Source of the DNA: an uncultured virus (IMG/VR IMGVR_UViG_3300030098_005893)
Taxonomy: Duplodnaviria; Heunggongvirae; Uroviricota; Caudoviricetes
Strand: one strand, 5' to 3'
Virus record (IMG/VR): IMGVR_UViG_3300030098_005893
Coordinates: 1 to 64,000 of that record
DNA: 64,000 nt
Positions 925 through 64,000 of this stretch are shown in pieces (position 1 is the first letter of the stretch; each line of letters starts with the position of its first letter). A program made the position numbers and the translations under genes. The notes below the pieces were generated by a model. The model was not told the origin of the DNA, searched no databases, and saw only the letters and a program-made list of their open reading frames with translations.

Positions 925-1344
925 CTATTTAGAATGTTGCAATTCCGCAAGCTCTACTTGGAAGAGTTCGATGATCGTTTCTTCTTCCCGAAAATGCCTG
1001 ACACGTTCTGCAACTGCGAGGACTTCAAGATGTTCGGGGGAATCATCTTCAAACATTCCGATTTGTCGAAGTCCGTCCAGATAGTGCTTTGAGGCGGCTC
1101 CCAATCCATCGTAGTCGCGGGATCGGACGGTTCTGACGGTAACGATTGCAATAGTGCGGCATACTGGCTTTGCCTTGCTTTGAATTCTTTTCCTACGCTT
1201 CGGTTTGTCTTTAGCAGGTTTAGGGTCGGCCCCACCTGTGGTATCACCACATGCGCTACCTTTTTTGCGCCAGACTCCATCAGGGCCCTTCTCAAAACCT
1301 TTGCTGTGTAAGAGATCATACGCCTCCTCCCTGCTTCCTTTCAT
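925..1344 (-). CDS. RusA-like Holliday junction resolvase
   Basis: DYDGLGAASKHYLDGL...G..EDDS matches the RusA DxDN..K...D..DD pattern. ATG 1344 preferred over TTG 1434. Confidence 0.6.
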   Translation of the reverse strand: MKGSREEAYDLLHSKGFEKGPDGVWRKKGSACGDTTGGADPKPAKDKPKRRKRIQSKAKPVCRTIAIVTVRTVRSRDYDGLGAASKHYLDGLRQIGMFEDDSPEHLEVLAVAERVRHFREEETIIELFQVELAELQHSK

Positions 1345-1744
1345 TTGAGGGGACCTTTCTTTTTTCCCTGTTGTAAAGAGGCACAATTGACCTGCGACCG
1401 TGCTTTGTTTTCTGTAGATACCCTTTTCTTTCAAGGGCGGCTACGACATTGCTGGCAGAGTTCGTCCAGTGCCACCCCATATGATTCATGATCTCCCTGA
1501 GGGTGGGAGATGCCCCGTTGCTTATGTAGTTGTGGACAATAAAGCATAGAGACGCATCTTGCGTTGATGTCAAATCCGGAAGCATGATGTTCATCTCGTC
1601 TTCAGGAAGATGATCCACCATGTATTGCGTGAGCAGCTTGTCGCAATTTTCAATCGTCTTTTCTGCTGCGGACCTTTGTTGCAAAACAAACTTTACTGCT
1701 GGATTGTTTTGAATATCTGCTGGGACGTTGGGTGACTTATTCAT
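1316..1744 (-). CDS. LexA-type winged-HTH DNA-binding protein without the peptidase domain
   Basis: SPTLREIMNHMGW...SASNVVAALERKGYL...RRSI is the LexA N-terminal domain signature. ATG 1744 follows the DnaB stop. Confidence 0.7.
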   Translation of the reverse strand: MNKSPNVPADIQNNPAVKFVLQQRSAAEKTIENCDKLLTQYMVDHLPEDEMNIMLPDLTSTQDASLCFIVHNYISNGASPTLREIMNHMGWHWTNSASNVVAALERKGYLQKTKHGRRSIVPLYNREKRKVPSNERKQGGGV

Positions 1745-1746
1745 TT

Positions 1747-4127: not shown

Positions 4128-4140
4128 TGTCTGTTGCTAT

Positions 4141-8185: not shown

Positions 8186-8186
8186 A

Positions 8187-10102: not shown

Positions 10103-10143
10103 TGTAAGTGGGCTCTAGATGTTGGAGTTAGATGCTGAGACAG

Positions 10144-10172
10144 CGTATAAACAGGGGGACAATAGAGATCAA
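10144..10172 (-). promoter_or_regulatory. Sigma70-like promoter for the replication operon
   Basis: Minus strand TTGATC-N17-TATACG, ending about 40 bp upstream of ATG 10102. Confidence 0.5.
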
Positions 10173-10823: not shown

Positions 10824-11717
10824 CTAAATCGCCATGACTCCCTTGTAGTCCAGACGACTACATTCTCCAGCCATGACGCTCACTCGCCTTGCCGGGTCCT
10901 CAAACAAGTGAGGATGCTCACCGCACTTTTTGACCCATTCAAGGCATTTGGAGACAAGGGCCTCCAGACCCTTTTCCCTATCAGGGATCATGGACCTCAG
11001 AGCCTCTTCGTGAGCCTCATTGCCATCCAAGGGAGAGTGCCTGACATCCACGGGGTTCCATTCTCCCAGTGTGGTTATTTGCCGCTCCCCCTGACCAAAA
11101 GCGGCAGACAGGCAGAATTGCTGGAAGTCCCGATCCAGCCATGGCGGGGTCCAGCAGGAGGATCTGCAAATATGGATTGCATCGGGTTGCAATTTGCAAC
11201 GGTTCTTTTCCCACTCGTCCATGGCAAGGACATTCATATCAACGCCGTGATCATCTAAGAGTGGGCGAAGCATGTCCTCGTCCCCGGTTCCCTTTGTGGG
11301 GATGCAGTGGGAAAATGACGGGCAATACCAGTCCACCTCCCGAACCATGCCGACCTCGATGGCTTGCGTAAGCCAAGTGGCGCAACAGACCCTGTCCTCG
11401 CTAGAGGGCCACATGTCGTGGTGCTGGTCAACAAGGGCGACCTTCCACTCTCCCTCCGGGGGGAGGGATGTGTCAGGCCACATGACGCTGAACGCCTCCA
11501 TGTGACTGTCTGAGATGTAAATGGGGACCCGGCTCAGGTCCATTCCGTCAAAGAACCCGCTTGCAAACTTGCTAAGCTGCATGATGGGCTCAAGGTATCC
11601 TCGGTGACCCCATAATATCTCCCGGTAAAGAAGACTTTCGTTGTGACCAAGGTCAGCCTCAACGGGCTCGGGGATGAACGCATCCCAATCAATGGTGAGA
11701 AGTGTTTTTTTCTTCAT
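10824..11717 (-). CDS. Arginase/deacetylase-fold (UPF0489-like) putative metallohydrolase
   Basis: Motifs LTIDWDAF, SDSH, VDQHHD, ICRS..WTPP. Confidence 0.55.
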   Translation of the reverse strand: MKKKTLLTIDWDAFIPEPVEADLGHNESLLYREILWGHRGYLEPIMQLSKFASGFFDGMDLSRVPIYISDSHMEAFSVMWPDTSLPPEGEWKVALVDQHHDMWPSSEDRVCCATWLTQAIEVGMVREVDWYCPSFSHCIPTKGTGDEDMLRPLLDDHGVDMNVLAMDEWEKNRCKLQPDAIHICRSSCWTPPWLDRDFQQFCLSAAFGQGERQITTLGEWNPVDVRHSPLDGNEAHEEALRSMIPDREKGLEALVSKCLEWVKKCGEHPHLFEDPARRVSVMAGECSRLDYKGVMAI

Positions 11718-12094: not shown

Positions 12095-14238
12095 GGCTTT
12101 GGCTTGTTAGGGTTTCTGAGCTTTGCGACCCAAGCCGGGTCACATTGCCTTCGATACTTCCAAGCAAGGGCACAAATACGCCCCTTCTCGAAATCCGTCA
12201 AGCTCTCTAGACGCTTTCTGGCGAGTCTTCCGCCATATTCGGAGTCCATCTTATTGAACCCGACATCGTTGCGAGCGGTGGCATGATCGCCATCCATTTT
12301 AGCAACCTGTCTGACGCATGTCAGAGCCAGCACAAGCTCTCCGGGGGAGAGGCTTTGACCAAGTTTCATCGCGGCCATCTTGCGCTTCCGCTGGTCGCTA
12401 TCATCCTGCTCTCTCTGGGCTACAGACCTAGAGGGCTCTGCTGGTCCCTTGGGACCGTAGTTCACCTCGCTAGAGTTCAAGGGGGCGTTCCCGTCATTAT
12501 CAATGGCTTGCTCAATCACATCCATCTTCCGGGCGTTGGCTCGGAGAATCTGGATGTCTATGGTTTGCTCCATTGCAAGATACTCAATGAGAACGGGGCT
12601 CTTCTGGCCGATGCGGTGGGCGCGGTCTTCAAACTGAGCGTTATTAGATGGGACCCAATCAGGCTCCACAATGATGACATGGGGAGCCGCTGTCAGAGTC
12701 AGGCCAGTTCCCGCCGCCAGAATGTTGCCAATGAACACCTTGGTGGAGGGGTCATTCTGGAAACGCTGAACGGCATCATGCCTGTCCTGAGGAGGAGTGT
12801 CTCCGGTGACGACCACAGGCTTGAACTCTTCCAGCTCCTCGCGGAGACGGGAAATGACCTGCTTGTGGTGCGCTCCAATGATCACCTTGCCTCCGGACGA
12901 CTCCAGAGCATTGCGAATATGATCCACGGATACGTCCACCTTTGACATGCCGATGTGCTTCCGGACCTTACTGGTCTCGGTGAACAAGGCATTCTCTGCT
13001 GACCGGAGAGAGTCCACAGCTCTTGCCATGGAGTCCGCATCCCCGGCCAGCTTGGCCTCAGCAAGTTTCTGCTTTGCAATTGCAACCGTCTTCTCGCTGG
13101 TCGTGTAGTCCATGGTGAGTGCGTCAAGCTCTCGGATTGTTTCCACCGGGGTGGGCAGAGAAACAATCTTTCTGGTCTTGGCTGGAAGCTGGGTAAGGAC
13201 GTTCTTTTTCAAGCGCCTCACCATGCATGTCCCCCGGGCCATAGTTTGCAACTCCTGTAAGTTACTAGCTCCGCTAGTATCCCAGCCGCTGCCGAAGGGA
13301 ACTCTTCTGGCATCGCAAAAGCGAGTTGCAAACTTGCTCCACACCCCGAAATGCTCAGGGGCGCAAAAGCGCAGCAGGTTCCAGAAGTCCTCGGGCCTAT
13401 TGCTTACCGGGGTCCCGCTGAGGAATAGGTGCCTTTTGGCCGCTATAGCCTCTCTGGGGGCCTTGGTTTTGGATCTGGCCCGGGGAGGCAGGCCAAGCAG
13501 CCCGGTGGCCCTCTTGGTCGTCTTGTTCTTGAGGTAGTGCGCTTCGTCAGCGATGACCACATCCCATTCCCGGTCTCGTAGCATTTTCTGGGCGGGAGCC
13601 ATGGCCATCAAATCGTAGCTGATGACTACCGCGTCATGGTTTGCAATTTCCGGAATGTCAGCCTTGGATAAAACCGGGTGAGGAATAGGGAGCCCCATTC
13701 CAAACTTCTCGACTTCATCTCTCCAGTTGAGACGCAAAGACGCCGGGCAAACAATCAGGATTTTCCGGGCTTTGGTCACATTGCAAACCCCAATGGCTTG
13801 CATGGTTTTGCCCAGACCCATGTCGTCGCCAATGATCACCCGGGGACGGGCGCAAGCGTATTCAATCCCTGCGAGCTGATATGGATACGGGGTGACCCCT
13901 TCTGGAAACGGGATCTTGCTCCATTCCATCCCGGGCTTCTCAGACCGGGAAAGCTCAAGCAGCATTTCGCTATAGTTGGCCTTGGGAGCAGAGTTGGCCG
14001 GGATAAGCCAGCAAGTGACCTGCCACGATCCGCTATCACTCTTTCCGCAAGAGAACCCCTGCTTCTTCAAAGCGTCCTTGTGGAGCTTCCAATAATCCCA
14101 CCAGCCGTCAGGCATGGGGGAGACGAACAGGTGCCGGGGCCCCTGTCGTGTGTTCACCTCGCCCTTGTCCTCCCAATTAAGGGAGAACGAGGGGAGGGGA
14201 AGGGGTGTTGCAACCCCGGTTGGTAGTGTGAGACTCAT
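12091..14238 (-). CDS. SNF2-family helicase (HARP/SMARCAL1-like)
   Basis: Motifs GDDMGLGKT, VCPASL, ADEAH, LSGTP, GTGLTL, QFEDRAHRIGQ. Confidence 0.93.
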   Translation of the reverse strand: MSLTLPTGVATPLPLPSFSLNWEDKGEVNTRQGPRHLFVSPMPDGWWDYWKLHKDALKKQGFSCGKSDSGSWQVTCWLIPANSAPKANYSEMLLELSRSEKPGMEWSKIPFPEGVTPYPYQLAGIEYACARPRVIIGDDMGLGKTMQAIGVCNVTKARKILIVCPASLRLNWRDEVEKFGMGLPIPHPVLSKADIPEIANHDAVVISYDLMAMAPAQKMLRDREWDVVIADEAHYLKNKTTKRATGLLGLPPRARSKTKAPREAIAAKRHLFLSGTPVSNRPEDFWNLLRFCAPEHFGVWSKFATRFCDARRVPFGSGWDTSGASNLQELQTMARGTCMVRRLKKNVLTQLPAKTRKIVSLPTPVETIRELDALTMDYTTSEKTVAIAKQKLAEAKLAGDADSMARAVDSLRSAENALFTETSKVRKHIGMSKVDVSVDHIRNALESSGGKVIIGAHHKQVISRLREELEEFKPVVVTGDTPPQDRHDAVQRFQNDPSTKVFIGNILAAGTGLTLTAAPHVIIVEPDWVPSNNAQFEDRAHRIGQKSPVLIEYLAMEQTIDIQILRANARKMDVIEQAIDNDGNAPLNSSEVNYGPKGPAEPSRSVAQREQDDSDQRKRKMAAMKLGQSLSPGELVLALTCVRQVAKMDGDHATARNDVGFNKMDSEYGGRLARKRLESLTDFEKGRICALAWKYRRQCDPAWVAKLRNPNKPKP

Positions 14239-16403: not shown

Positions 16404-16492
16404 GATGTGATTCCTTTCTAGTTTCTGATTTGTTGTTGATAGTTGCAAGTTGCAAGGGGGAGCGGGGGTGATCCCCGCCCCCCCGGAGGGGG

Positions 16493-18313
16493 CTACCGCT
16501 TGAGCTTGTAGCCTTTCCCTTCTGCCGTTTTCCGGAGATCCCTCTCGTCCATCTCGATGATGGTGTTGAGGAGGGCTGGAAGCTCGGTGGCGATGTCAGT
16601 CACCCCGGCTGCATGTCCCTTGCCAAGGAGCCGCTCAGCGTGTTCGATCTCGCTGTCGGAGACATGAATCCCGATGTAGTAGACCTCGATCCCCTCAGCC
16701 CACGCTTCCTTGCAGAAGTCATTGGCGCTACGGTATTCGTCGGCCCCCTCATCCCATGCTCTGTGAGTTCCATTGAAGGAGCCATCAGAGAAGATGACCG
16801 CAATCCGGCGCTCCTCTCTCCGGGTTTGCAACTCCCTGACGGAGGCCATCATTGCGGCCCCGCAGCAGGTGCTGGCTCCCAGACCCTTGACGGTAGGGGC
16901 GGCAATCAATCCCTTGTCGCTCCAGCCCTTCACCTTATGGCTGCTCCCGGTGAAGGCTCCCCAATAGTTTGCAATCCCGCACTTCTCGAAAGCCCTGCGG
17001 ATAAGGTTGGCCCCGATCCACTGGCCATGGAGCCGCTGGAAGATTGCTGATAGCTTCTGGGCAAGCACAGGCTCCGTGACCTCCAGTCGGTGAGTGTGCC
17101 CCGCTTTCGAGACGTTGATGATGACCTTCCCAATCACCCCCTTGGCCTCGCCCCTGCCATGGCTCAGCCCGGCCCGGTTGCCGAAAGCCCCGGAGCAAGT
17201 GCTGCCAATGATGCAGCGGGTCTTGTCAGTGGCTCCCCCCTTTGCAATAATTTTTGCAACCTCGTTGGCGTGGTCGTGCAGCCCCACCCTCCGGAGGGTG
17301 GCCTCCACCCTCTTTGCTGCCTTGTCTCCAAAGAACTTAGTGGAGCCTTGCATGGAGCCGCTGTAGTCGAGCATAGTTGCAACGGCCACCCGGCGGTTGG
17401 TGCCCCGCAACTTGCGCTGGAAGCAGTAGGGGGAGTCAGTTGCAATCCGGACGCAGCTCTTGAGATCAAGTCTCCCGCCGCGCTGGTGGCGCTTCCGCTT
17501 GTTCCGGGCGATGGCCTCAAATGTTCTCCGGATGGTAGTAACCAGCCGGGAGAGGCCTACCCGCCAGAAGTCAAAGGACTTCTTTGTGACCTTGTCGCTG
17601 ATCTCGTATTGAGGAGCCCAGAGCGGGTCACCGCTCCCGCCTTGTAGACCCTTGATAGCTTTGAGCAGGTCCCGGTCATCTACGTGGGCTCCATGGTTGG
17701 GGTCGCCTTGCTGGCCCTCGCTCCCCTCATCGTTGCCACCGTCAGTATCCCGCTGTTCCCCGGTCAGCTCTCCCTCCTCAGGCTCCTCGCCCTCTCCGGA
17801 CTCACCTTCGCCTTGGCCCTCGCCTTGGCCTTCGCCCTCTCCGGACTCACCTTGGCCTTCGCCCTCGCCTTCGCCTTGGCCTTCGCCTTGGCCTTCGCCT
17901 TGGCCCTCGCCCTCGCCTTGGCCTTCGCCTTGGCCTTCGCCTTGGCCTTCGCCCTCGCCCTCTCCGGGCTCACCCTCGCCTTCGCCCTCTCCGGGCTCTC
18001 CCTCTCCCTCTCCCTCGCCCTCTCCGGGCTCTCCGGGCTCTCCGGGCTCTCCGGGCTGAGGCTCGGGGCCCTCAGGCTCCAGAGCCTCAATGGCGTTGAG
18101 TTCTTCACGCCAAAGCAGGCCAAGGTTTGCAGCCATGAGGATCTCATGAGCCTCTCGGGCGTCACCCGTTGCCCGGGGGAACCACGTTTGCAGGTTGGAC
18201 TTCTTGCGCCAGACTTTGCTTGCAAGGTTCTGGTCAAGGCTATTGTTGATGATCTCGGCCCTCTCGGGGGTGACGCCAATGGCGTCCCAGCTAAGTGTGA
18301 ATGAATTGGACAT
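16493..18313 (-). CDS. vWA-domain (CobT-like) protein with a Gly/Glu-rich linker
   Basis: MIDAS motif LDYSGSM, AVIFSDG, GRLDL motif; directly downstream of an AAA+ ATPase. Confidence 0.85.
   Translation of the reverse strand: MSNSFTLSWDAIGVTPERAEIINNSLDQNLASKVWRKKSNLQTWFPRATGDAREAHEILMAANLGLLWREELNAIEALEPEGPEPQPGEPGEPGEPGEGEGEGEGEPGEGEGEGEPGEGEGEGQGEGQGEGQGEGEGQGEGQGEGQGEGEGEGQGESGEGEGQGEGQGEGESGEGEEPEEGELTGEQRDTDGGNDEGSEGQQGDPNHGAHVDDRDLLKAIKGLQGGSGDPLWAPQYEISDKVTKKSFDFWRVGLSRLVTTIRRTFEAIARNKRKRHQRGGRLDLKSCVRIATDSPYCFQRKLRGTNRRVAVATMLDYSGSMQGSTKFFGDKAAKRVEATLRRVGLHDHANEVAKIIAKGGATDKTRCIIGSTCSGAFGNRAGLSHGRGEAKGVIGKVIINVSKAGHTHRLEVTEPVLAQKLSAIFQRLHGQWIGANLIRRAFEKCGIANYWGAFTGSSHKVKGWSDKGLIAAPTVKGLGASTCCGAAMMASVRELQTRREERRIAVIFSDGSFNGTHRAWDEGADEYRSANDFCKEAWAEGIEVYYIGIHVSDSEIEHAERLLGKGHAAGVTDIATELPALLNTIIEMDERDLRKTAEGKGYKLKR
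17770..18070 (-). repeat. Coding tandem repeats (GEGQ, GE, PGE units)
   Basis: Iterated ccttcgccttgg and ctctccggg units. Confidence 0.9.
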
Positions 18314-18435
18314 GATGTGAGTTGAATTGAATTGGATTGAATGTTGATAGTTTAGGTTGGAAAATTTCCTCCCCCCGGAGGGGGAGGTTGCTCACCCGCA
18401 TTGCTACGGGTGAGCCCCGTAGCATCGGGAAGTGT

Positions 18436-19989
18436 TTATTGGTCGAAGATCCAGAGATCAGCGGCCCGGAGAGCAGCGCGGCCCTCCTCCCCTGCCCGGT
18501 TGGCAAAGGTATTGAAAAGGGACTGGCGAACATCGCTAGCAGTCTCCTTGAGGCCCGGGAAGGTCATCCCGGTGTCCCGGTTGTAACCAAGCCACAGGCA
18601 CCCGGCATTGACCAGCACCCGGGTGGAGCATGGCTCCTCCAGAACTGGCTCGCTACCGTTCAGGCCGAAATGCAACGGCCTTGCAACGCTTGCCCACTTT
18701 GCAAGCAGGGTGGCCTCCGTTGTGCTGAGCGTCTCCCCGGTATCCGGGTTGCACAGTCTGCAGAGGATCTCAACCTCCTCCTCCAGAGGGAGCGGGGAGG
18801 CGATGACTGACAGCAGGCGCTGCTTCAGCGAGGGATCGAATCCCTCCCGGTTGTAGTGCCCGGCATCATCCCCAATCGAATTGGAGGTGAAGACAACCAC
18901 AAAGCCGGGAGCAGCCTTCACAACCTCCCCTGTCGGGGCAATCGTAACCTCCCGGGATTCCAGCGCATCGTTAAAGATCATGCTGGTGGCCTGAGAGAGC
19001 AGGTCCCCCTCATCGACGATGAGAACGTATCCATGCCGCATGGCATGGGTAAGGGGGCCATCGCTGTAGTAGGAGGTCCCGCCCTTGATCCCCGCTGTGA
19101 ACAGCAGCTCATCGGCCTGCAATACATCGTTGCCGGAGATGAGCTTCCATGGCAGGCCTAGCTTGTTGCAGGCCTGTTTCACCGGGAATGTTTTCCCCGC
19201 CCCGGAGCTGCCTCCCATCACCATGTGGACGCCAGCCATGAGCCAGCCACAGAAGGACTCAAACCAGCCGGAAGGCTCTTGGAACAGGGGATCGACCTTC
19301 TCGACAGGGGGAAGCTCCCGGGCTCCCTCAGCCACCCTCTGGATCACCTCCTCGGAGGGGGAGAGAGCAGTGATGGTCTCCGAAACAGCAGCCCGGAGAG
19401 CAGCCGGGGAAAGGGAGGCCCCTCCCCCGGACTTGGCAGCAGCCTCAGCAGCCTCGACTGCCTTGGCCTCGACCGCCCCCAGATCGTTACCCATCCGGGT
19501 GGCCAGAGAAGTCAGGTCGGATTGCAACTTTGCAATTGCGCTCCCGGTTTCCTCCTCCCCCTCGGAGAGGGTTGCAGCGAGGAGAGAGGCCAAGGCCTCA
19601 GCCTTGCTGCCAGCCGCCGGAACCGGAGCAGCCGGGGTGGCCTCAGGAGCCGGGCCCGTTACCGGAGCCGGGGCTGCGCTGAGATTGTCCTCAGATACCG
19701 TCTCAACCCAATTGTCCATGGTCTGGCCAACGGTTGAGAAGGCTGAGAAGTAGTTCAGGATCTCCTCTCCCTGCTTGTCATGAATCTGCGACAATAGCTG
19801 GTCCCGGGTATGCCCCCCGGCCTGTGCAAGGATCTCGAACAGGGGCCATATCCGGCTCCCGTTCCATCCATTGGCTCCCTGCCTGATATTACTGAGCGCC
19901 GGGCGCAGTTTGTTCAGGGGGTGATTACTTGGTGCGGCCTTGACCATGTTGGCCAAGACCCGTCTTGCTACTTGAATGTTGAATTTCAT
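18436..19989 (-). CDS. MoxR/CobS-like AAA+ ATPase
   Basis: Walker A GSSGAGKT, Walker B LIVDE, FTSN, DGPLT.AMR.G. Confidence 0.88.
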   Translation of the reverse strand: MKFNIQVARRVLANMVKAAPSNHPLNKLRPALSNIRQGANGWNGSRIWPLFEILAQAGGHTRDQLLSQIHDKQGEEILNYFSAFSTVGQTMDNWVETVSEDNLSAAPAPVTGPAPEATPAAPVPAAGSKAEALASLLAATLSEGEEETGSAIAKLQSDLTSLATRMGNDLGAVEAKAVEAAEAAAKSGGGASLSPAALRAAVSETITALSPSEEVIQRVAEGARELPPVEKVDPLFQEPSGWFESFCGWLMAGVHMVMGGSSGAGKTFPVKQACNKLGLPWKLISGNDVLQADELLFTAGIKGGTSYYSDGPLTHAMRHGYVLIVDEGDLLSQATSMIFNDALESREVTIAPTGEVVKAAPGFVVVFTSNSIGDDAGHYNREGFDPSLKQRLLSVIASPLPLEEEVEILCRLCNPDTGETLSTTEATLLAKWASVARPLHFGLNGSEPVLEEPCSTRVLVNAGCLWLGYNRDTGMTFPGLKETASDVRQSLFNTFANRAGEEGRAALRAADLWIFDQ

Positions 19990-20721: not shown

Positions 20722-21579
20722 CCCTGCTGGACAAAAAAATGCAACTTTCTTTCCCGCCCCTATTTTGCAAGGGCGAAACAGGCCTCCCCACTGTCCGCAA
20801 ACCCCCTCCCCGGTAGCTCTACCCATTCTCCCGGGAGGCTGAGCCCCTCTCTACCCCCCGGAGGGTAGCCCCCGCCCCCCCTACTACATACCCCCTCCAT
20901 TGCAACCCCCGGGAGGGGAGGGCCAACCCCACCCCCCGCCCCTATATCCCAGAGCAGAACTGCCGGGCGAGTCATACCAGCACACATACTCCCTACTACT
21001 GGCACACACACTCTCCCCACTACAGCAGACAGCACCCCCCGGCCTCCCTCGCTCTCCCCCCTCGCACGGCGCAATCCATGTCATCGTGCTGAGGCCCCCT
21101 CCCTGCCGTGCCACAGATGCTCCACGTGGAACAGTCGCCCCCCCATTGCAATTGCATCCATGCTGCCATGCCACCCTGCCGCCTCCCTGCCATGCCGCTA
21201 CCCCCGGAGCCATGGCCACCCGGGGAACTATCACTCCCCCTGCTGCTCCGTTGCAAGTTGCAACCAGTTGCAAGGGGCACCCCGGGATACCCGGACCCCC
21301 GGCAACGGGTCCCATGCCCCCGAGGTCTCCCCGTAAAGATACCCCCCTAAGCGGAGCGGCGTTACTATTGGGGAATATGGGACCCCTATTTTGGGACTCC
21401 GGGGATGGAACGGGACTCCAGCGTGGGACTCTACATCTGGAACGGGACTCCTGAAGTGGTTTGGGTCTGATGACCGCTGATGTGGGGTGCCGCTTCCGCC
21501 TCTCTATGGCAATGAGGCGTAGTGCTAATTTTCCCGAAAAAAAATCTTAGCCCATCCGGCTACGCCGATCTGGGCTAAA

Positions 21580-21936
21580 TTATTGCTGTGGTTGAGAGAG
21601 GGGAGGGGACTCAAGTTTGAACTCGTAGAGTTCGTCCATGAGTTTATCGACCCTTTTTTGCAACTCTGAGATATGCAGGTCCTGTCTTGTATCTGAGGGG
21701 AGTTCCCCACTTCCCCATTTTCCGGCAGGCCAAAGTTCCACGAATTGTGAATTTTTGGAGACATCCTTTCCCATCATCTGGATTTGGAAGTCGTTATGCT
21801 GGACCTGAGAGTTTAGTCCTGACGCCCACCAGACTATTGCGGCGGCTTGGAGTGCCAGTCCTACTAGGAGAGGGACAAATGCAAAGCCAGCCCCATCGCG
21901 GCTATCGCTTTTGTCCTCTTTTGCCATGAACGGCAT
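21580..21936 (-). CDS. Single-TM protein with a coiled coil
   Basis: Hydrophobic segment FAFVPLLVGLALQAAAIVWW. Confidence 0.6.
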   Translation of the reverse strand: MPFMAKEDKSDSRDGAGFAFVPLLVGLALQAAAIVWWASGLNSQVQHNDFQIQMMGKDVSKNSQFVELWPAGKWGSGELPSDTRQDLHISELQKRVDKLMDELYEFKLESPPLSQPQQ

Positions 21937-23919: not shown

Positions 23920-24225
23920 TTACAGTGCTTTGCGTTCTGACAAATCAAGGACATTGGTGGCATCATGCAGACGCTCAAGAGGCCAAGGCCTAAGACCTCG
24001 CTCAAGGTCAGAAAGGTATGTCGCAGAGATGTTCATCCACTTCGCCATAGAGCGCAGTGACATGCCCGTCTTTACCCTCCTCTTCCTTACAAGCGAGCCA
24101 ATCGCCTCCCAGTCAAATACCCATTGTGAGGACATGCTTACTGGTTGGTATTGACCAAGCCAGCTAGGAAGCGCGGAATAAGCCTCTTCGCGTGTCTTGA
24201 AGCTAGTCCGAAAGCTCTTCGGCAT
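23920..24225 (-). CDS. XRE/Cro-C1 HTH regulator
   Basis: RKRRVKTGMSLRSMAKWMNISATYLSDLERG. Confidence 0.8.
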   Translation of the reverse strand: MPKSFRTSFKTREEAYSALPSWLGQYQPVSMSSQWVFDWEAIGSLVRKRRVKTGMSLRSMAKWMNISATYLSDLERGLRPWPLERLHDATNVLDLSERKAL

Positions 24226-24687: not shown

Positions 24688-25329
24688 TTAACGGGAGTAT
24701 TTTTCGTCAGCATCTAGTGACCCCCTGACCTTCAAGTCCTTAGAGAGAATTTTCTTTCTAACCTCCGACTCTATTGGGGTCTCCTCGTCCTTGGGCCGCT
24801 CCTTCAAGGCCTTTTCCGCTTCCGTTAGGTCTCCTTCAATAAGTTGCTCGCTAGGGACTTCAATAGCCTCTCCATCCTCAGCCTTGGACCTGTCGAGCAT
24901 TCGGCCAACTGCTCTACGCAAAGCCGGGGACTTCTGCATTTTGTTTTCCAGAGTCTGCATTGTATCCACATTGTGAGTGACCACCTCGCTTCGGGACACA
25001 GGCATTCCCACTTGATATTGCAAAAGCAGCTTCAGCGCGTCCAACCGGGTTTTGAAGTCAGGGGTCTCAAACGGCTTGCCCCCAATGGCCATGGTTTTGG
25101 TCGCAGACATGCATTCTGCAATTTTTGCAACTACCTGATCCGGTCCAAACTTAATTGCAAGTGACTCGATGATCTTGGGGGCTAGGTCGGCGGCCCTGAT
25201 GGAGAGGCGGCCCTCTTCTGCCGCTTTTTTGATTTTGCTCTCAGCCTCCTGAACCACGGTCTCTTTTTCAACTGTTCCCTCCGGGGGGAGAGAGGGCAAA
25301 GGTAGGCTTTCAGGCTGTTTTTTAGGCAT
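24688..25329 (-). CDS. Possible terminase small subunit
   Basis: PDFKTRLDALKLLL...G.P resembles TerS oligomerisation helices. ATG 25329 (MPKKQ). Confidence 0.45.
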   Translation of the reverse strand: MPKKQPESLPLPSLPPEGTVEKETVVQEAESKIKKAAEEGRLSIRAADLAPKIIESLAIKFGPDQVVAKIAECMSATKTMAIGGKPFETPDFKTRLDALKLLLQYQVGMPVSRSEVVTHNVDTMQTLENKMQKSPALRRAVGRMLDRSKAEDGEAIEVPSEQLIEGDLTEAEKALKERPKDEETPIESEVRKKILSKDLKVRGSLDADEKYSR

Positions 25330-25364
25330 TGCAAGGAAATAAATTGCATGGTGTAATGTTGCAA
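25329..25364. promoter_or_regulatory. Divergent promoter region between the two arms
   Basis: Plus strand TTGCAA(25329)-N17-TGTAAT(25352); second TTGCAA at 25359 faces leftward. Confidence 0.55.
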
Positions 25365-38100: not shown

Positions 38101-41100
38101 GAGCGCCGTAGAGAATGCTCTATGGCGATGGGAGACTGACGGAATTACGCCAGAAGGCTTTAATGAGTATGAGCCCACTATTTTGGTTCACGAAGGAGGG
38201 ACTTGGTTTGGACAGGAGGGGGCAGTTCTTTTGAAGGATGAGAGCGGGGAGATGTTTGAGGGCAAACTGCTCTCGTTTGCCGACAACGGTATCGGAATGT
38301 CTCCTGAGACCGTGTGGAGCAAGTTTTTGCCAGCCTTTGTATCGGCAAAAGGAGTTGGAGAAGGGGGAGGGTTTGGAATTGCAAAACTGGTATTCCTGAT
38401 GGGTCCTAACAACGTCAGGGTGTCCACGGTCAACGAAGACGCCGAGGGGCGCAGAATTATGACGGAAGTGGAGATCAAGCCCGGGGCTTACAAGAGATTC
38501 CTGAACAAAGGGAAAGTAGCAACTCCAGACAACATGCTGGAGCCCGGAAACGAGACGGAGGTTGTCCCGGGCTTGACCATAAAGGTTAGCTACGCCCCTG
38601 AAATGACATCAGGAGCAGACACGGGGACGGCATACATAATGGGCACCCCTAACCCTAATGACCCTAATAATGAGCAGTGGAACTACGCAAAGAATGCAAG
38701 CTGGAACAGGGCAGTTGAGTTTATACGAGAGGCATCAGAATTGACTCCTCACGTTAGTCTTGCAACCGAAACCCACAACGCAAGTATCCGGAGCCAGCTT
38801 ATGGGAACAAGCACCCTGTATGAAAAGAGGGAGGCTGGGGAGAAGCCAAGGATTGCCAAGGGCGACACTTGGTTTGAGATTTATGACGGGGAAACGCAAA
38901 GAAAGAAAACGAGGGAATATGTAATAGCGGCAATCAGGAGGCAGGATTTGGAGCTGGTCGAGAGGTATGGCAACGACTCTAGGGCATATAAAGATGGCCT
39001 AGAAGAGCGTTCTAGAAATTTAGAGAGGCCTGCAATTTACGAGTATGCGGGAATATCGCGGTGGGCTGCTGAGGCCCCGCTCGACACAGAATTTCTCAGG
39101 CCACAAGACAAAATCAATAACTGGGTTGTTCTTGAAGACGGGAATATCGAAACGGACCTGTTTGAAATGGAGATCCTAGCCAAGGAGGGAGACAGGCAGA
39201 TTCAAAGCGGATCAATTCAGGCCAAAATACTCAACAGGACGATATACCAGTTTGATGAAACAGTTTCGATGGGGGTCGGTGAAGAGGGACTCGTCCCCGC
39301 CGGTGGAATTGCAATCAACATAAGGTCAAAGGTTGGAGCGGGTGAGGCGGGTTATCCATTTAGCTTAGACAGGAACAATGTTTCGCAGGAGGTCAAAGAC
39401 GAGATAAACACCTTTATGGGCAAATTGGCCCATATTGCCTATACCAAACAAAGAAACCAGTGGGTAAACCGCAGGAAAAACACGGTTCTAATTAGAAGGC
39501 CCGATAAGGGCGAAGAACAGTATGGCCCAGAAGCAGAAGAGTTTGCAAGTTATGCAGCCGTTAAGGAGTGGGGACAAGAGCCCGGGGACTATATAGAAGT
39601 TCCCGGCGAGTTTCATTTTTTGGATCTGTCTGGGACCTTAGACGAGGGGGTTGTGGAGGAATTTGCAAAAGACCCTGTAATTGCCCAAATCGCTGAAGAC
39701 TATTACGAGATTCAAGGGAGGGTATTAAAGTATCTGAAGCTGAGGAACCAGCATGACCCAGATTTTGGAAGGGCTGGGTTTGCGGGATTTGCAGTCGGAA
39801 CTAACGCATACGGACTTCACTTTCCTTTGAAGTATGTGATGGATAAAAAGTTCGTTTCGGACAACCCAACCGACAGCCCTCCCAGCCTTATTTACCATGA
39901 CCCTCTTGCAACATTGCAACATGTCATAGATGAGCATTCGGTTGGAGAACTCGCAGAAATAGGTGGAGCAGTTCTTCCCGGGAAAGGCCTTCAAGACTTC
40001 AAAAGTGGCGCCCCCATGGCCTATTATACAGGGCTATATCAGGTGTTTTTAGATGAAGTGGCCGGAATTGCCGTCCACGAAGCCCTGCATCAGTCCATTC
40101 ACTCCGAGGGGGTTTCCCTTGCTAGGGGTCTTACATTTAATGCCGGGGGACTCGCATCAACTCTCCAAGGATTTGCAACCGTCCAAGATGTTTTGGGAAC
40201 TACGGACCCAGACGAGCTTGCAAAAAGAGCAAAAATCAGAACAGATAAACTAAAGGATTATTATGAGCAGTTTGAGCAAGATTTTGACGAACAAGAGGCG
40301 CAGGCATTTATTACTGGGACGGGTGCTAAAGGATACAACCTTAGAATTGAGGGACCGAGAGGACGCGGAAAAGGAGCTTATCCAACTGGAAAGCCAGATA
40401 GCCCGGATCAGAAACAAGATGATGGCCGTCAAAAAGGAGGGAAGCTGAGCCTTCAGGGCCTAAAAGACGCCGAGGAAGGCGCTGAGAGAGCCAAGAAAAG
40501 GATGGATAGGCGGGGGAAGCCGCTCCGCGAAAGGTTTAGGATTTTCAGGAAGAGGGACGACAGGACTGCCGCTGGAGCCAAAGTGGTCAAGGGTGACCCG
40601 TCCAGAGCCAAGGTGGGAGAGACCCCTGAGGTGAGAAATGCATATGATGTTTCTCAGGAGATATACAATGACACATATATCGCGCAGAACTTCCCTGAAT
40701 GGATGTCTGGCGCAGCCAAGGTAAGAAAGACAGAGGGTGACGATGAAATAAGAAAGAAAATATACGAATCTGCCGAGAAGCTAGGCCAACCCGGGACTCC
40801 TGAATTCCAAATTGCCTCAATGCAGGTTGTTGCAGACGACTTCCAAAGAGCCCTAGCGTCCGGAAATCAGACAGACATAGATAACGCCATGGCTCTCGCT
40901 CATGCGTTTCAGGAGTTAAGGTCTGAAATTGCAAGAACGATGACCTCAATGCGGGACCCGTTCCAGACCCCGGCTCAAAGGGCCGCATACGCTTTAGGTC
41001 AGGCTATAACTCAAGCCCCGCCGCTTCAGGTTAGAGCGTTGCAAAAAAAGCATGGAGCCAAAGAGGCCGGAGACGAAATACCCTCGCAAAATAAGGAGGC

Positions 41101-46349: not shown

Positions 46350-47341
46350 TCAAAAGCGGTTTCAGTGGACAGGGCAACGGCCCCAATTCCTGACTCTACC
46401 GCGTAGTCCCTGAACCTTTGTCTGGGGGAACACCGGAAACGCACATTGGTGATCCGGAAATCTCCGAGAGATGGATAATCCCACAAAAAGGCTTGGCCAA
46501 GACTCAAGGCGTCAGACCCGGTGGCCTCCCAGCTCCCGCTGCCCATCTTGGTGTATTCATCTGCGCCCTCCACTCTAAACTCTACATCCCAATGGACCTC
46601 CATCATTGGGCTAAACACGCTAGGCCATGGAAGATTTACCCTGTAAACAAATGGCAATGGGTCCCTGTAGCCCTTTTGAATAGTGTAATCCCCTACATAT
46701 GTGGTCCCACCATGGGAGCCGTTCACGTTGACGTTTGCAATTTGCAAAAACTGGGTGTCAGATACAGACGCAACATATGTTGTGGTGCTGCCGATTGAGT
46801 CAAAGGTGGTTTGACTGTGGTTTTCAGTTGCAGGCGTCCCCGATGAGTAGGTGAGGAGCCCGGTCCCATTGGAGGAATATCCTTCTTCCATGTCCTGAAC
46901 CGCGCCTACCACGCCCCAAGTTCCAGACCTTGCCCCATTGGTCTCCGATCCAGAGCTAACTTTGATGGCCTCAGGGTAGGTGGGGTTGTCCAATGTGCCC
47001 AAAGTCCTCATCGCGTCCGGACTAAAGATGTATTGATCATAATCAATCACATCTGTCTTGGTGTGGACAGAGGCCGCCCCCCCAGAGGGAGTCGTAGTAA
47101 CGGTCCCATTATGATGGACTGGGTTTACATAAGTCAGCCAAAGCATACGAAACCCGCTCGGGGGCATGGCGTTGACTATCGAGGGGTCAAACCCCGCCGG
47201 GCTGGCCTGAAAGCCAAGATACAGGCCATTGGTCTGCTCTATGTGAAATTCCGGAGCAGGGCACTCTAACTCCGCACAGCACACGCATTGCTGGTCTGGG
47301 AACTTCTCAGTGCTTGCTCTCCCGTATACTTCGTAAGACAT
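46346..47341 (-). CDS. Hypothetical beta-rich (S/T/G) protein, possibly structural
   Basis: 331-aa ORF coupled to the upstream minus-strand ORF. Confidence 0.7.
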   Translation of the reverse strand: MSYEVYGRASTEKFPDQQCVCCAELECPAPEFHIEQTNGLYLGFQASPAGFDPSIVNAMPPSGFRMLWLTYVNPVHHNGTVTTTPSGGAASVHTKTDVIDYDQYIFSPDAMRTLGTLDNPTYPEAIKVSSGSETNGARSGTWGVVGAVQDMEEGYSSNGTGLLTYSSGTPATENHSQTTFDSIGSTTTYVASVSDTQFLQIANVNVNGSHGGTTYVGDYTIQKGYRDPLPFVYRVNLPWPSVFSPMMEVHWDVEFRVEGADEYTKMGSGSWEATGSDALSLGQAFLWDYPSLGDFRITNVRFRCSPRQRFRDYAVESGIGAVALSTETAFD

Positions 47342-48042: not shown

Positions 48043-48095
48043 AATTGCAATTTAATTCTTGCAAAGGATCAAATAAAGCCCAAAATCCCGGGATA

Positions 48096-50970: not shown

Positions 50971-51011
50971 TTCCTGAGAAATCAGGGATTTGGGATCAAG
51001 AACCCAATTAT

Positions 51012-51052
51012 GGGGGCCCTGAGTTGCAATTCTTGCAACCGGGGCCCCTTTT
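51012..51052 (+). terminator. Intrinsic terminator after the MCP
   Basis: GGGGCCC..GTTGCAA-ttc-TTGCAAC..GGGCCCC-TTTT. Confidence 0.8.
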
Positions 51053-51066
51053 GCTATACTTTGAGT

Positions 51067-56033: not shown

Positions 56034-56053
56034 TCTCCCCCCGGAGGGAGGCT

Positions 56054-56760
56054 ATGAGAACCCCCAAAACAAACAGGTCCTGCGTGGCGCTTGCAATTAT
56101 TGCAAGCTGCTTTGCGTTTGTGTCGTGTTCTCCCTCGGTCACACAGGCACCGCCAGCCATAGCGGTTCCCAAATTATCTCCAAAGCCCAATATAGCCAAT
56201 ACGGAGGCGCAGGTCCGAAAGGTAGAGGCTAAAGTTGGAGAGGTGGAAGACGCGGTAAGGGATGTTGGGCACAAGCTCGACGCCGCCAAAGTGACCACAG
56301 AAGCCATAGAAAAGGCTGTTGAAGAGGCTTACGCAAACGGGCTAGAGGCGGGATCTGCTGCCGCTGACGAGCTTCGGGGCTTTGTGGTAGACCTTAGGGC
56401 AGAGTTAGACTCGTCTATTGCCGCTAGGGAGTCTGCCGTTGCAGCATTAAACGAGACCAAAGCGGCTCTAACCAAGGCAGAGCAAGCAAACCTCCAGTTG
56501 CGATCTGAGATAGAGGCTATGGCCGTCCAGAACAAAGGCTTACTNNNNNNNNNNTCAAAATAGGGATTAAAATTGCTGCTGAAAGAGACGCGGCTCGGGA
56601 AAAGGTAGCAAAAGTGGAGTCCCAAAGAGATGAAGCCCTTAAATATAAAAGGTTTGTGTGGATTGCGGTAGCCGTGGCGATGCTATATCTTGTCCTGAAA
56701 GTTGTTGTTGCAACTGGAACTTGGACACCGCAAGGACGAATTGCTAAAATACTTTTTTAA
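56054..56760 (+). CDS. Lipoprotein with coiled coil and C-terminal TM (candidate unimolecular spanin); spans an assembly gap
   Basis: Signal peptide ending FAFVS-C; after the N run (56545-56554) a frame reads KIGIKIAAERD...FVWIAVAVAMLYLVLKVVV...KILF* to 56760. Confidence 0.55.
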
Positions 56761-56777
56761 CCAACCAACTGAATCCA

Positions 56778-57044: not shown

Positions 57045-57056
57045 ACCCAATAGGAA

Positions 57057-59407: not shown

Positions 59408-59424
59408 CCGATACATAAAGCTAT

Positions 59425-60441: not shown

Positions 60442-60465
60442 ACCAAACCCCACAAACTCAAAGCA

Positions 60466-60909
60466 ATGGACAGCGATCTGAGAAAAAGAATAGAAAAGGC
60501 GGCACACAAGCACCCGACACTTACTAATGGCAAAATAGCCCACAATTGCAATTGCAAGGTAGCCGATGTTGAGAAAGTAAGAACCGACCTTGGTCTTGAG
60601 GTGGTTCATTCTGGCCCAAGAGGGAAAAGGAAACCTGCCTCAAGGGGAAAGGGTCTTGATCAGTTTCGCGCCAAGCACGATGTGGATCTCATCATCAGGA
60701 CCAAGGTGATGGAGTATCTATCTGAAGACCATGAGGAGTATTTTGATGACCATGACTTCCGAGAGATATGCGAGGTTCCTGTTACAGGCTGGAGAAGGCA
60801 CTCCGACTCGCCAGACTTTGATGAATACAGGTTGAGGAAGGGAAGCCTTAATGTGTGGGGGCCTAAGCACATAATCCTGCAAATGAAAAAGATCCTCGGG
60901 ATCATGTGA
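60466..60909 (+). CDS. Hypothetical protein, possible HTH
   Basis: LTNGKIAHNCNC...VEKVR. Confidence 0.6.
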   Translation: MDSDLRKRIEKAAHKHPTLTNGKIAHNCNCKVADVEKVRTDLGLEVVHSGPRGKRKPASRGKGLDQFRAKHDVDLIIRTKVMEYLSEDHEEYFDDHDFREICEVPVTGWRRHSDSPDFDEYRLRKGSLNVWGPKHIILQMKKILGIM

Positions 60910-60911
60910 AG

Positions 60912-61781: not shown

Positions 61782-62437
61782 CCGCTGTGCATATAGACCT
61801 TTACACAACACTGACCGCTTTAGGGGCGGCAGCCTCCGCTGTGCTGGCGATTTGGTCGCTAACAACAAGGGGGAGGTCCGCGTGGAAAGAATGGTGGATA
61901 AGAAGAAGGCAGAGGAGGCAAATGCCGCAGTTGCTTCTGTCTATAAAAGAAGAGCTTCAGAAAGTCGCGGATAGGCAGGAGTTTTTCACTGCTGAGCTGA
62001 AGACAAATGGAGGAACCTCGCTAAAAGATGAGGTAAGGCTGTTGGTTAGCGAGAGGCTGATGGAGTTGCAAGAGGCTCCATACCCGGCCTTTAGATGCAC
62101 ATCAAACGGGGAGGCTATCTTCGTCAACAGGGCCTATGAGACCTTGGTTGATGACGACGACTCCAAGTTGGTTGGGCTTGGCTGGCAGTCATTCATTTAC
62201 GACAGCGAAGAAGGGGACACTTATTATCAAAGGTGGTTGCAAGTTGCGAAAACGGGCTCGCACTTTGCAGGAAACCTGAAATACAAAGATTCTCATGGAA
62301 ATTACCGGGGAGAATGGTTTGTCCGCATTGTGCCCCTTGGCCCATATAAAGCACACAATCAGATATGGGGAGGAAGAGTGTTTCCTGAGGACGAAGTAGC
62401 AGAAGAAATAGCAAAGGAATACGGATGGGCGAGATAG
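61778..62437 (+). CDS. Membrane-anchored PAS-domain protein
   Basis: N-terminal TM, NGGTSLKD linker, then IFVNRAY..L.....LVG.GWQSFI...RW...YKD.HG, a PAS signature. Confidence 0.7.
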   Translation: MTAVHIDLYTTLTALGAAASAVLAIWSLTTRGRSAWKEWWIRRRQRRQMPQLLLSIKEELQKVADRQEFFTAELKTNGGTSLKDEVRLLVSERLMELQEAPYPAFRCTSNGEAIFVNRAYETLVDDDDSKLVGLGWQSFIYDSEEGDTYYQRWLQVAKTGSHFAGNLKYKDSHGNYRGEWFVRIVPLGPYKAHNQIWGGRVFPEDEVAEEIAKEYGWAR

Positions 62438-62439
62438 AG

Positions 62440-64000
62440 GTGCAACTTACCGACGATCAGGCAGACGAGCTTCTTCGTGCTGCTTGCATGGAAAATGAAG
62501 ACGCTTGGGTCGAGCAGTTTGGCAAGATCCTTAAAAAGGACGGGGCTGTAGAGACTCCCGTCCTTAACTATTTGCAAGAGCAGGTCTGTGACGCAATAAG
62601 ATGGTGCAGAGAGAATGAATATCCATGTAGGATAATTATCCTCAAGCCACGCCAGAAAGGGTCCTCTACTGTTACCACGGCCTGTCTATACCACATGTTG
62701 CAGAGGAGGCAGTCCAACGGACTAATTATTGGCGGCGAATTTAGTCAAACGGATAACTTGTGGAAAATTACCAGAAGGTATTCGGATTACGACAAAATGA
62801 AGTGGCCCCACGAAAGACCAAGGATCACAAACGAAAGAGGGGCCTTTGGTAACGGCTCCATTCTTGAAAAGGAGACGGCGCAGGACTCAGAAGCCGGAAG
62901 ATCAGGAACTTTTCACTTCGTCCTTGCAACGGAAATTGGACGCTGGAGAGACACCCCGGCCAGAAACTCCGCTGAAATCCTGACCGGGGTGATGGCCTGT
63001 GTTCCCGACCTTCCAGACACAGCGGTGGTTCTTGAATCAACCGCGCAAGGCCCGGCAGGGGTTTTCTATGACCGCTGGAATGACGCTGACGACTGGGAGC
63101 ATGTCCAGACCCTTGCAAAAGGCGAGTGGAAAGGGCGGTGGATAAGGATATTTGCTCCTTGGTATGCTTTCGAGGACGCCAAAGACAACCTTACTGCCGT
63201 AGAGGTTGAGGACCTCAGGCGATCTTTAACCCCCACGGAAAGGGAGCTTTTGGCGGATTACAAGTGCGTGGACAAATCGGGTAACGAACACACTATCACG
63301 ATTAGCCATATTAGCTGGAGAAGAAAGATTCTGGAAAGCGAGTGCGATGGAGATGAGACCAAGTTCGACAGGGAGTTCCCCACCACCTCGCAACACGCCT
63401 TCAGAGCGTCTGCTAGGACGAGGTTCTCCCGTGATGGCCTCGACTGGCAAAGGACCCATGCGACCGCTCAGAAGCCAATCTACGGCATTCCTGAGCTATC
63501 CGAGAGCGGCAAGCTGGTGAATTTCAGGCAATCTTCTTTGGAGGAGGCCATTGTCCATTGTTTTGAGAGGCCCCGAGAGGGATACTATTACCTAGTAAGC
63601 GCGGACTTGATGACCGGGCAGTCACAAGTTGGAGGCAAAGATCCCGATTGCCATTCGGTTTTGGTTTGGAGAAAAGGTTTTTTTGATCGTGATCGCGGGT
63701 GGATTCCGCCGTCTATGGTTGCAAGATTAAAGCCTGAGTGCAGGTGGGATATAGATGTTTTGGCAGAGTGGACATACAGGCTGGCCCACTGGTATGGGAA
63801 GTGCCTTCTAGTGTCTGAGATAAACTGCGACCGGGGGTTCGTGGAGCTTATCAGGGCCAAAGGAGACATCCCCATTTACCAAAGGGAGATATTTAACCAT
63901 GTGAACCAAAAGAGGTCCAAGGCCTTTGGGTGGCACACCTCCAGTTCCACAAGATTGCAAATTGAGGAAACAATGGCCCGAAGCATCAGGGGATACGGGG
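62440..64000 (+). CDS. terL: Terminase large subunit, 3'-truncated by the window edge
   Basis: Hand translation from GTG 62440 (absent from the ORF track, no stop in window): IIILKPRQKGSST, VLESTAQG, FDREFP, VSADLMTG, SEIN, FGWHT. Confidence 0.9.
   Translation, partial: MQLTDDQADELLRAACMENEDAWVEQFGKILKKDGAVETPVLNYLQEQVCDAIRWCRENEYPCRIIILKPRQKGSSTVTTACLYHMLQRRQSNGLIIGGEFSQTDNLWKITRRYSDYDKMKWPHERPRITNERGAFGNGSILEKETAQDSEAGRSGTFHFVLATEIGRWRDTPARNSAEILTGVMACVPDLPDTAVVLESTAQGPAGVFYDRWNDADDWEHVQTLAKGEWKGRWIRIFAPWYAFEDAKDNLTAVEVEDLRRSLTPTERELLADYKCVDKSGNEHTITISHISWRRKILESECDGDETKFDREFPTTSQHAFRASARTRFSRDGLDWQRTHATAQKPIYGIPELSESGKLVNFRQSSLEEAIVHCFERPREGYYYLVSADLMTGQSQVGGKDPDCHSVLVWRKGFFDRDRGWIPPSMVARLKPECRWDIDVLAEWTYRLAHWYGKCLLVSEINCDRGFVELIRAKGDIPIYQREIFNHVNQKRSKAFGWHTSSSTRLQIEETMARSIRGYG

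Follow-up and report, generated by a model that had tools for sequence, protein, structure and literature searches.

The described phenomenon nearest to the subject of this paper is HIP1 (GCGATCGC), a highly iterated palindrome of cyanobacteria, together with its alternates GGCGCC, GGGATCCC, TCGATCGA and others. According to Elhai 2015 (PMC4390886), each cyanobacterial iterated palindrome is paired with a methyltransferase of that specificity and is present at 500-2500 sites per Mb, HIP1 and its alternates are tied to orphan methyltransferases, and the one-base variants of HIP1 are biased to the outermost positions; the main text of that paper makes no mention of phage. Xu et al. 2018 (PMC5861425) describe HIP1 as conserved between genomes by selection rather than by repair bias and as periodically spaced at 10-90 kb, with a function that is still unresolved, and a 2026 proposal (PMC13756078) treats it as a DNA-uptake signal. 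Here we describe the hexamer palindrome TTGCAA in an uncultured tailed phage, the single-contig IMG/VR record IMGVR_UViG_3300030098_005893 of 64,943 bases, whose first 64,000 bases form the stretch analysed here (the window). At least the first 60 bases of the record are found again at 64,845, from which we conclude that the genome is complete, with terminal redundancy. We propose, with a probability of about 0.5, that TTGCAA is a phage-borne highly iterated palindrome, a selected mark for a symmetric reader or modifier in the conflict between phage and host.

TTGCAA is like HIP1 in being a short perfect palindrome, with 2633 copies per Mb in the phage against the 500-2500 given for cyanobacteria (PMC4390886), in lying in all reading frames and in spacers with conservation beyond background, and in spreading through point substitutions and not as a mobile repeat (PMC4390886, PMC5861425). 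It is unlike HIP1 in that it sits in a 65-kb lytic-type phage and not in a cellular chromosome, is an A+T-rich word of 6 bp, coexists with a near-total purge of other palindromes, and has one-off variants that show no bias to the outer positions. The 10-90 kb periodicity reported for HIP1 (PMC5861425) is on too large a scale for a 65-kb genome. A preliminary description of this DNA had named HIP1 as the closest precedent, and the analogy is apt; as a member of the same class, however, TTGCAA fails on the cognate methyltransferase in the same genome, which scans of the predicted proteins did not find.

A literature search returned no account of a phage with a hyper-abundant palindrome, nor any of TTGCAA as a genome-wide motif or methylation site. 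A cultured phage nevertheless offers a parallel. A 50-kb stretch of Klebsiella phage RaK2 has 114 copies of AGTACT where 16.6 are expected (about 7-fold) and lacks 24 of the 64 hexamer palindromes, whereas 50 kb of E. coli K-12 hold 3 copies against 11.6 expected. The comparison covers one 50-kb phage stretch, with E. coli standing in for the Klebsiella host, and indicates that a phage can carry an iterated palindrome unshared by this enterobacterial chromosome sample. RaK2 resembles the present phage in having a single enriched hexamer palindrome amid the absence of others, although the two phages are unrelated, the word is another one and the host on the RaK2 side is enterobacterial. The literature on over-represented phage palindromes yielded no report of AGTACT in a search that was not aimed at AGTACT or RaK2, and we know of no publication on AGTACT in RaK2-like phages. 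Chi and the uptake sequences (USS/DUS) are likewise short and enriched throughout a genome, and they label DNA as self, in an additive manner, for the machinery that processes it, but they are asymmetric, orientation-dependent and defined in the cell and not in phage, whereas TTGCAA is its own reverse complement and so can have no orientation.

Abundance, format and conservation of TTGCAA

Exact copies of TTGCAA number 167 in the window, dispersed over 937-63960 through genes of both strands and spacers, and 171 in the complete genome, or about one per 380 bp. No other hexamer of the window is as frequent, the runner-up having 69 copies. Base composition predicts 14.1 copies of TTGCAA, an excess of about 12-fold; the preliminary description, counting by hand, had come close with about 165 against about 13-15 expected. 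Shuffles that preserve dinucleotides (n = 100) give 24.05 +/- 4.72 copies with a maximum of 37, so that none of the 100 reaches 167 and the excess is still about 7-fold. Spacing is near-Poisson (coefficient of variation 0.95, against 0.99 +/- 0.07 for random placement), with 6 to 21 sites in each 5-kb bin.

Our gene set of 65 open reading frames (ORFs), obtained with our own ORF model and covering 94% of the genome, holds 152 of the copies. When amino acids and per-gene codon usage are kept (n = 300), shuffling yields 34.2 +/- 4.9 copies with a maximum of 50, a 4.4-fold difference, and when 37 avoided words are kept absent as well (12 runs) it yields 36.1 +/- 4.5. The strictest protein-preserving shuffle, in which every dinucleotide is kept and many sites stay fixed, gives 71.6 +/- 5.3 (n = 300, maximum 87), and the observed 152 lie 15 standard deviations above it. 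These protein and codon nulls are conservative, because the codon usage that they keep is itself inflated by the motif. A maximal-order Markov model predicts 140.5 copies, but this estimate is circular and uninformative because the motif dominates its own 5-mer counts. The excess is real, and it is not accounted for by protein sequence, codon usage, dinucleotides or palindrome avoidance; the disappearance that the preliminary description had allowed for, once amino acids and dicodon usage are kept, does not occur in these shuffles.

The word is exactly 6 bp long and its flanks show no preference. Palindromic extension to 8 bp is seen at 41 of the 171 sites against 42.1 expected, on which grounds we rejected a longer motif or repeat family. 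One-mismatch variants are near their expected counts, with 9-34 copies for changes at outer positions and 10-40 at inner ones; for the sixth base the figures are 9 for TTGCAC, 34 for TTGCAG and 18 for TTGCAT, against 167. A perfect palindrome of 4-8 bp without flank information is also the format of a Type II restriction-modification site. We know of no prototype restriction enzyme for TTGCAA, and a literature search found no paper joining TTGCAA with REBASE.

As the preliminary description had noted, the copies fall in several frames and in genes of both strands: 43 read TTG CAA (Leu-Gln), 96 read xTT GCA Axx and 13 read xxT TGC AAx, and a further 20 sites are non-coding or lie at gene boundaries. 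All frames and non-coding DNA are thus occupied with no longer repeat involved, and the density outside genes (4.8 per kb) exceeds that within them (2.5 per kb). Positions at which the protein sequence permits the word are filled in 43 of 93 cases for Leu-Gln, 96 of 222 for [FLIV]-Ala-[IMTNKSR] and 13 of 21 for Cys-[KN], about 45% overall. The dipeptide Leu-Gln itself occurs 93 times against 55.8 expected, with 50 for the reverse Gln-Leu, and the phage's protein sequences are themselves bent towards TTGCAA.

Relatives were collected as IMG/VR contigs through portal and helicase searches, with portal identity from 100% down to 63%; these contigs are partial. The whole contigs of four relatives hold 83, 124, 79 and 58 copies where base composition predicts 8.3, 10.9, 8.6 and 6.6, and two loci at 63% portal identity hold 42 against 5.6 and 13 against 1.3, so that enrichment is 7.5-12-fold in most relatives down to that identity. 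Further out, eight loci that share only a DnaB of 28-33% identity show 0.8-fold representation in one case and 1.3- to 3.1-fold in seven.

Individual sites are retained as well. In four relatives, 51%, 88%, 44% and 67% of the aligned TTGCAA sites are intact, where the figures for all hexamers are 27%, 63%, 14% and 14%; a fifth relative offers only 8 aligned sites. Where the amino acids are unchanged and control hexamers are matched for frame, retention is 34/51, 58/60, 12/21 and 9/11 against expectations of 21.4, 46.2, 5.0 and 2.7, and 1 of the 4 comparable sites is retained in the fifth relative. Retention beyond the controls is therefore significant in four of the five relatives, and synonymous sites within TTGCAA are conserved about twice as well as background. 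Losses polarised by an outgroup amount to 7/38, 3/34 and 16/47, against all-hexamer rates of 0.34, 0.24 and 0.64, or about half of background. Single sites are thus preserved where changes would be synonymous, the whole clade shares the trait, and permissive positions are near saturation. The proposal in the preliminary description that selection acts at the level of DNA, rather than through a coding by-product, is borne out by the excess over codon- and avoidance-keeping shuffles, by the inflated Leu-Gln and by this synonymous retention.

Where the word has changed, 10 of the 31 two-base differences in the relatives turn TTGCAA into TCGCGA, TGGCCA or TAGCTA, whereas other palindromes stay palindromic in 2 of 103. 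All of these palindrome-preserving double changes fall in the frame whose synonymous sites are positions 2 and 5; in this frame class there are 10 of 15 against about 5 expected (p about 0.009, uncorrected for transition bias or shared ancestry), a result that we treat as weak.

The setting is one of severe loss of other palindromes. GTAC is absent from this genome against 251 expected, 29 of the 64 hexamer palindromes have no copy and 42 stand at one quarter of expectation or less. The sister palindromes that the preliminary description had called rare are so indeed, with 1 copy of CTGCAG and 9 of ATGCAT, and GTGCAC has none. In relatives G006-G010 (loci L151-L163), and in the two loci at 63% portal identity, GTAC is again absent or nearly so. 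The purged set flips in an all-or-none manner between close relatives. TCATGA has 15 copies and GAATTC 11 in this genome and both have none in G007 (89% DNA identity over the aligned part), AGCGCT has none here and 13 in G008, TCGCGA has none here and 10 in each of G006 and G008, and CCCGGG has 53 here and none in G009 or G010. This pattern bears the imprint of a rapid arms race against varied Type II restriction systems. Restriction-site avoidance in phages has been described (PMC6286503), and the purge seen here is alike in kind; avoidance accounts for the absences, however, and not for a 12-fold surplus, and imposing it in the shuffles leaves TTGCAA unraised. No known system accounts for the palindrome purge together with the TTGCAA surplus.

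A proposed mark for a symmetric reader and its alternatives

TTGCAA is symmetric over its six bases, has no flanking requirement and reads the same on either strand. Its most likely reader is therefore a homodimeric protein acting on double-stranded DNA, which could bind the word or modify it. Palindromes make up only 64 of the 4096 hexamers, and this makes it unlikely that the symmetry is an accident of an RNA or single-strand signal. Sites turn up in every frame, at -35 positions and in the loops of hairpins, in short wherever they can be tolerated, so their effect is probably additive and genome-wide rather than that of a local switch, each copy adding a little to the whole. Our guess is that TTGCAA would be a mark or docking site that lets a protein distinguish or cover phage DNA amid conflict with host defences, that the same conflict may have stripped the other palindromes, and that a few copies may double as promoter -35 hexamers. 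Between a trait of the phage lineage and a reader encoded by the host, we lean slightly towards the former.

Several observations weigh against a selected mark. No reader protein was identified, and the predicted proteins contain no methyltransferase domain or catalytic motif. The sub-lineage of G010 and L282 (64% portal identity) is only about 3-fold enriched or shows no visible enrichment, and no gene turned up among the partial contigs that comes and goes with the strength of the motif. Gains of the word are not clearly in excess, at 3 among 89 ancestral one-off neighbours against about 1 expected, and a continuing repair bias in both lineages would likewise raise site conservation. The palindrome is present in every transcript, so that a role at the RNA level is conceivable. 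The host, finally, was sought in only small samples of three phyla, and one with the same motif is conceivable. The 64% sub-lineage contig holds 44 copies against 15.5, an expectation that is steady at 16-18 under Markov orders 1-3; TAGCTA, considered as an alternate iterated palindrome of that sub-lineage, was rejected, with 30 copies against 27 under a third-order Markov model.

As to the proteins, no methyltransferase family was matched at E <= 0.05 in Pfam, nor in PHROGs, among the scanned proteins including both halves of the giant protein described below. A DPPY-type, PCQ or motif I pattern is likewise lacking in the 65 predicted proteins, many of which belong to no family, so that a novel enzyme is conceivable. 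The preliminary description had seen no methyltransferase in the window, and the family and motif scans extend this to the complete genome. Two small minus-strand proteins are candidate readers: a LexA-type winged-helix protein at 1316-1744 (PF01726, E 1.1e-10) and an HTH_31 protein at 23920-24225 (PF13560, E 2.4e-08).

None of the sampled 151 Cyanobacteriota, 401 Pseudomonadota and 301 Bacteroidota genomes has a comparable load of TTGCAA. Among the Cyanobacteriota the density peaks at about 1.4 sites per kb, a value reached in genomes that are rich in A+T and about 1.9 Mb in size (one sampled, 32% G+C), and genomes of 54-70% G+C, resembling marine Synechococcus, have TTGCAA at or near expectation and GTAC only moderately low. 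No sampled Pseudomonadota genome has more than 15 tight doublets, where the 65-kb phage alone has 11, and 42 Bacteroidota have any triple cluster, none with more than 4. A scan of species genomes for triple clusters returned, among the matches listed, diverse genomes unrelated to the phage, some at about 1.1-1.3 copies per kb, such as 2016 copies in a 1.6-Mb Gardnerella, 2726 in a 2.3-Mb Oscillospiraceae metagenome-assembled genome (MAG) and 974 in a 0.9-Mb Rickettsiales MAG. Among the matches listed by pattern scans of viral collections, the genomes were likewise unrelated. Matches to the DnaB and CobS-like proteins are distant and uninformative on the host, and the protein atlas returned viral clusters only. 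We also observe that the small A+T-rich Cyanobacteriota of about 1.9 Mb (G048, L301 and similar) carry TTGCAA at 4-6-fold over base composition, with 41 against 6.7 in 20 kb, and that in the set of loci L050 and L058 a Gastranaerophilales locus has 19 against 3.4 and a Gardnerella locus 23 against 2.8.

These samples bear on the rival that we take most seriously, although we think it unlikely, namely that TTGCAA is a host signature: the host would have a TTGCAA iterated palindrome created and maintained by an orphan methyltransferase and a methylation-linked mismatch-repair bias, as in the model of Elhai for HIP1, and the phage, replicating with the enzymes of the host, would be driven or selected towards that word. 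Cyanobacterial palindromes are reported to pair with methyltransferases at densities close to that of the phage (PMC4390886), the phage appears to lack a methyltransferase of its own, the diverse cellular genomes listed above have a moderate excess of TTGCAA for their size, and repair bias would account for site conservation too. On the other hand, none of the 853 sampled cellular genomes comes near the phage load, the one-mismatch neighbours of TTGCAA are undepleted and without the outer-position bias described for HIP1 (PMC4390886), the RaK2 palindrome is unshared by the E. coli stand-in for its host, and Xu et al. argue that selection, not repair bias, keeps HIP1 (PMC5861425). A quite different proposal, to which we give little credence, is that TTGCAA is a docking site for RNA polymerase, the -35 hexamer of the clade, read by a host sigma factor or by a phage activator that substitutes for the -35 contact, while the many intragenic copies would act like an antenna or a sponge and gather the polymerase, or this factor, on phage DNA. 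Good -10 partners are indeed found in 4 of 40 orientations at non-coding sites, against about 1% in the background (binomial p about 6e-4), and the spacer between the divergent gene arms keeps pairs or triplets of TTGCAA in all five relatives examined though the rest of the spacer has diverged. None of the 302 orientations at coding sites has such a partner, however, which suggests that a few copies may be promoter -35 elements and that the bulk are not; as a whole, the TTGCAA family does not have the TATAAT-like hexamer 16-18 bp downstream that marks a sigma-70-type -35 element. A -35 element moreover need not be palindromic, and the usual consensus is not, nothing accounts for its being written into about 45% of permissive coding positions, and domain and family scans found neither a sigma factor nor an RNA polymerase in the phage.

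Still less probable, in our judgement, is a signal in single-stranded DNA present on both strands, either a Chi-like word that tames a nuclease or a start site for primase, with a palindrome able to serve the two strands and the two ends at once. Chi sites can be short and primase sites can be trinucleotides such as GCA, one copy per 380 bp at near-Poisson spacing fits an additive, position-independent signal, and the phage has a DnaB helicase, a Toprim primase and an exonuclease. Yet the sixth base is strongly required (167 against 9, 34 and 18), which would not be expected of a 5-mer or 3-mer read on one strand, palindromic hexamers are too few for chance symmetry to be likely, and known Chi sites are asymmetric and orientation-dependent. 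That the surplus is a by-product of amino-acid, codon or dicodon bias, of a repeated element or of the removal of other palindromes is very improbable indeed. The strictest shuffle by itself reproduces about half of the coding copies, and A+T-rich genomes that prefer TTG, CAA and GCA codons reach a 3-6-fold excess; the coding copies nevertheless lie far above that null, keeping the avoided words absent barely moves the expectation, the lack of flank conservation means that TTGCAA is not a repeat family, and density is higher outside genes than within them. The shuffles and the flank analysis thus leave this explanation unsupported.

Returning to the selected mark, one specific form of it, which we regard as speculative and unlikely, is that tailed phages run an iterated-palindrome system of their own, in which a phage-encoded symmetric reader uses the density of TTGCAA to tell phage from host DNA. 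The reader would then be among the family-less ORFs, or perhaps a domain of the 5,900-residue polyvalent protein if this is injected, and it may shield phage DNA from a phage or host nuclease to which DNA poor in TTGCAA falls prey, or bring in a factor that protects or organises the DNA. The word would lend itself to such use because host restriction enzymes would seldom or never target it. If true, and taken with AGTACT in RaK2-like phages, such a system would amount to a general and undescribed phage strategy that mirrors restriction-site avoidance.

Phage genomics views short palindromes as liabilities, and here the heaviest purgers keep one of them near saturation, skewing codon choice and even protein sequence towards it. 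Should TTGCAA be read by a phage or host protein, this would be an undescribed layer of self/non-self marking in phage-host conflict, and at 65 kb the phage would also be a tractable system in which to ask what purpose highly iterated palindromes serve, a question 30 years old. Words of this kind could help to assign uncultured phages to a lineage or a host, and synonymous recoding of phage genomes may not be neutral.

Clustered and promoter-like copies

Close pairs of TTGCAA are more frequent than chance would give: 21 gaps do not exceed 22 bp, and 2000 random placements produce 9.5 +/- 2.9 gaps this short (maximum 22). The list of doublets and triplets in the preliminary description is accurate at seven of its eight positions; the doublet that it placed at 11167-11179 lies at 11187-11199, its two copies 7 bp apart. 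Copies also lie 7 bp apart at 46735-46747 and 14 bp apart at 48045-48064, and they abut at 60546-60557 and at 13074-13085 (TTGCAATTGCAA), the latter within the SNF2 helicase gene. Two clusters are non-coding: the doublet at 16443-16455, beside a G+C-rich hairpin downstream of the gene at 16493-18313, and the triplet at 21251-21273, in the gene-free stretch 20975-21580. This stretch of about 600 bp without a called gene is C-rich, has repeated words resembling GGGACTCC, and could be an origin or control region.

At 51024-51038 (plus strand) the doublet TTGCAA-TTC-TTGCAA forms the top of a hairpin, with the capsid gene upstream and a T-run downstream. Its second copy opens a promoter-like module at 51033-51060 (plus strand), in which TTGCAA takes the place of a -35 hexamer and is followed by a 16-bp spacer and TATACT. 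A similar plus-strand module at 25329-25357, at the point where the gene arms diverge, has TTGCAA, a 17-bp spacer and TGTAAT, with a second TTGCAA at 25359. Counted in genome coordinates, four non-coding copies (25329, 51033, 64361 and 64767) have a 5-of-6 match to TATAAT 16-17 bp downstream, and all four point along the right arm, those at 64361 and 64767 being just outside the window. The spacers at 51010-51060 and at genome position 64340-64390 share a layout, with a G+C-rich hairpin topped by TTGCAA, then TTTTGC, then TATACT or TATGAT. In both, a terminator-like stem overlaps the promoter spacer, which recalls the promoter-stem-loop cassettes of T4-type phages.

Genome layout and occurrence

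The minus-strand left arm carries the replication genes, namely those for the DnaB helicase, Toprim primase, exonuclease, SNF2 helicase and an AAA/VWA pair. In this last pair (16493-19989, minus strand) an AAA_5 (CobS/MoxR-like) ATPase adjoins a VWA protein, an arrangement that resembles cobS/cobT of marine cyanophages at 27-29% identity. The plus-strand right arm encodes a 5,900-residue polyvalent protein, an SU10-type portal, capsid, tail proteins and lysozyme, with a weak terminase match, and a run of 10 N (an assembly gap) lies at 56545-56554 in the tail-gene region.

The polyvalent protein, at 26114-43816 on the plus strand, is a single ORF that makes up 27% of the genome; it has DUF7178 and Kinase-PolyVal matches and a weak ART-PolyVal match of 27.8 bits, under the Pfam cut-off of 31.2, and it has no sequence match in PDB. 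By our own count from the site list its gene contains 39 TTGCAA sites. It evolves far faster than its neighbours, with 36-62% identity to G007, against 91% for the portal and 100% for several genes. Genomes G000 and G007 (L154-L156) are mosaic, blocks of 98-100% identity (for example 59.4-64.7 kb) alternating with blocks of 65-80%, which we read as recent recombination among co-occurring relatives. Sites as recombination joints found no support in a test of low power: the ends of 10 perfect-identity blocks lie a median of 112 bp from a site, against 130 for random positions, and 1 of the 20 ends is within 10 bp of one.

No tRNA genes were found in the phage genome, and searches by DNA, portal and capsid returned no cultured relative. 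A Shine-Dalgarno-like tetramer precedes only 16 of the 65 predicted genes, and many leaders are A/C-rich (CAACAACAA-like). This scarcity may point to a host whose translation starts independently of Shine-Dalgarno pairing; together with the A/C-rich leaders it would fit hosts such as Bacteroidota or Cyanobacteria, though it proves nothing. DNA of the phage, queried with a 10-kb stretch, is at least partly present in 20 sequencing runs from 8 studies, 17 of which hold half or more of the sampled words of that stretch, and all 20 runs are labelled marine or seawater metagenome.

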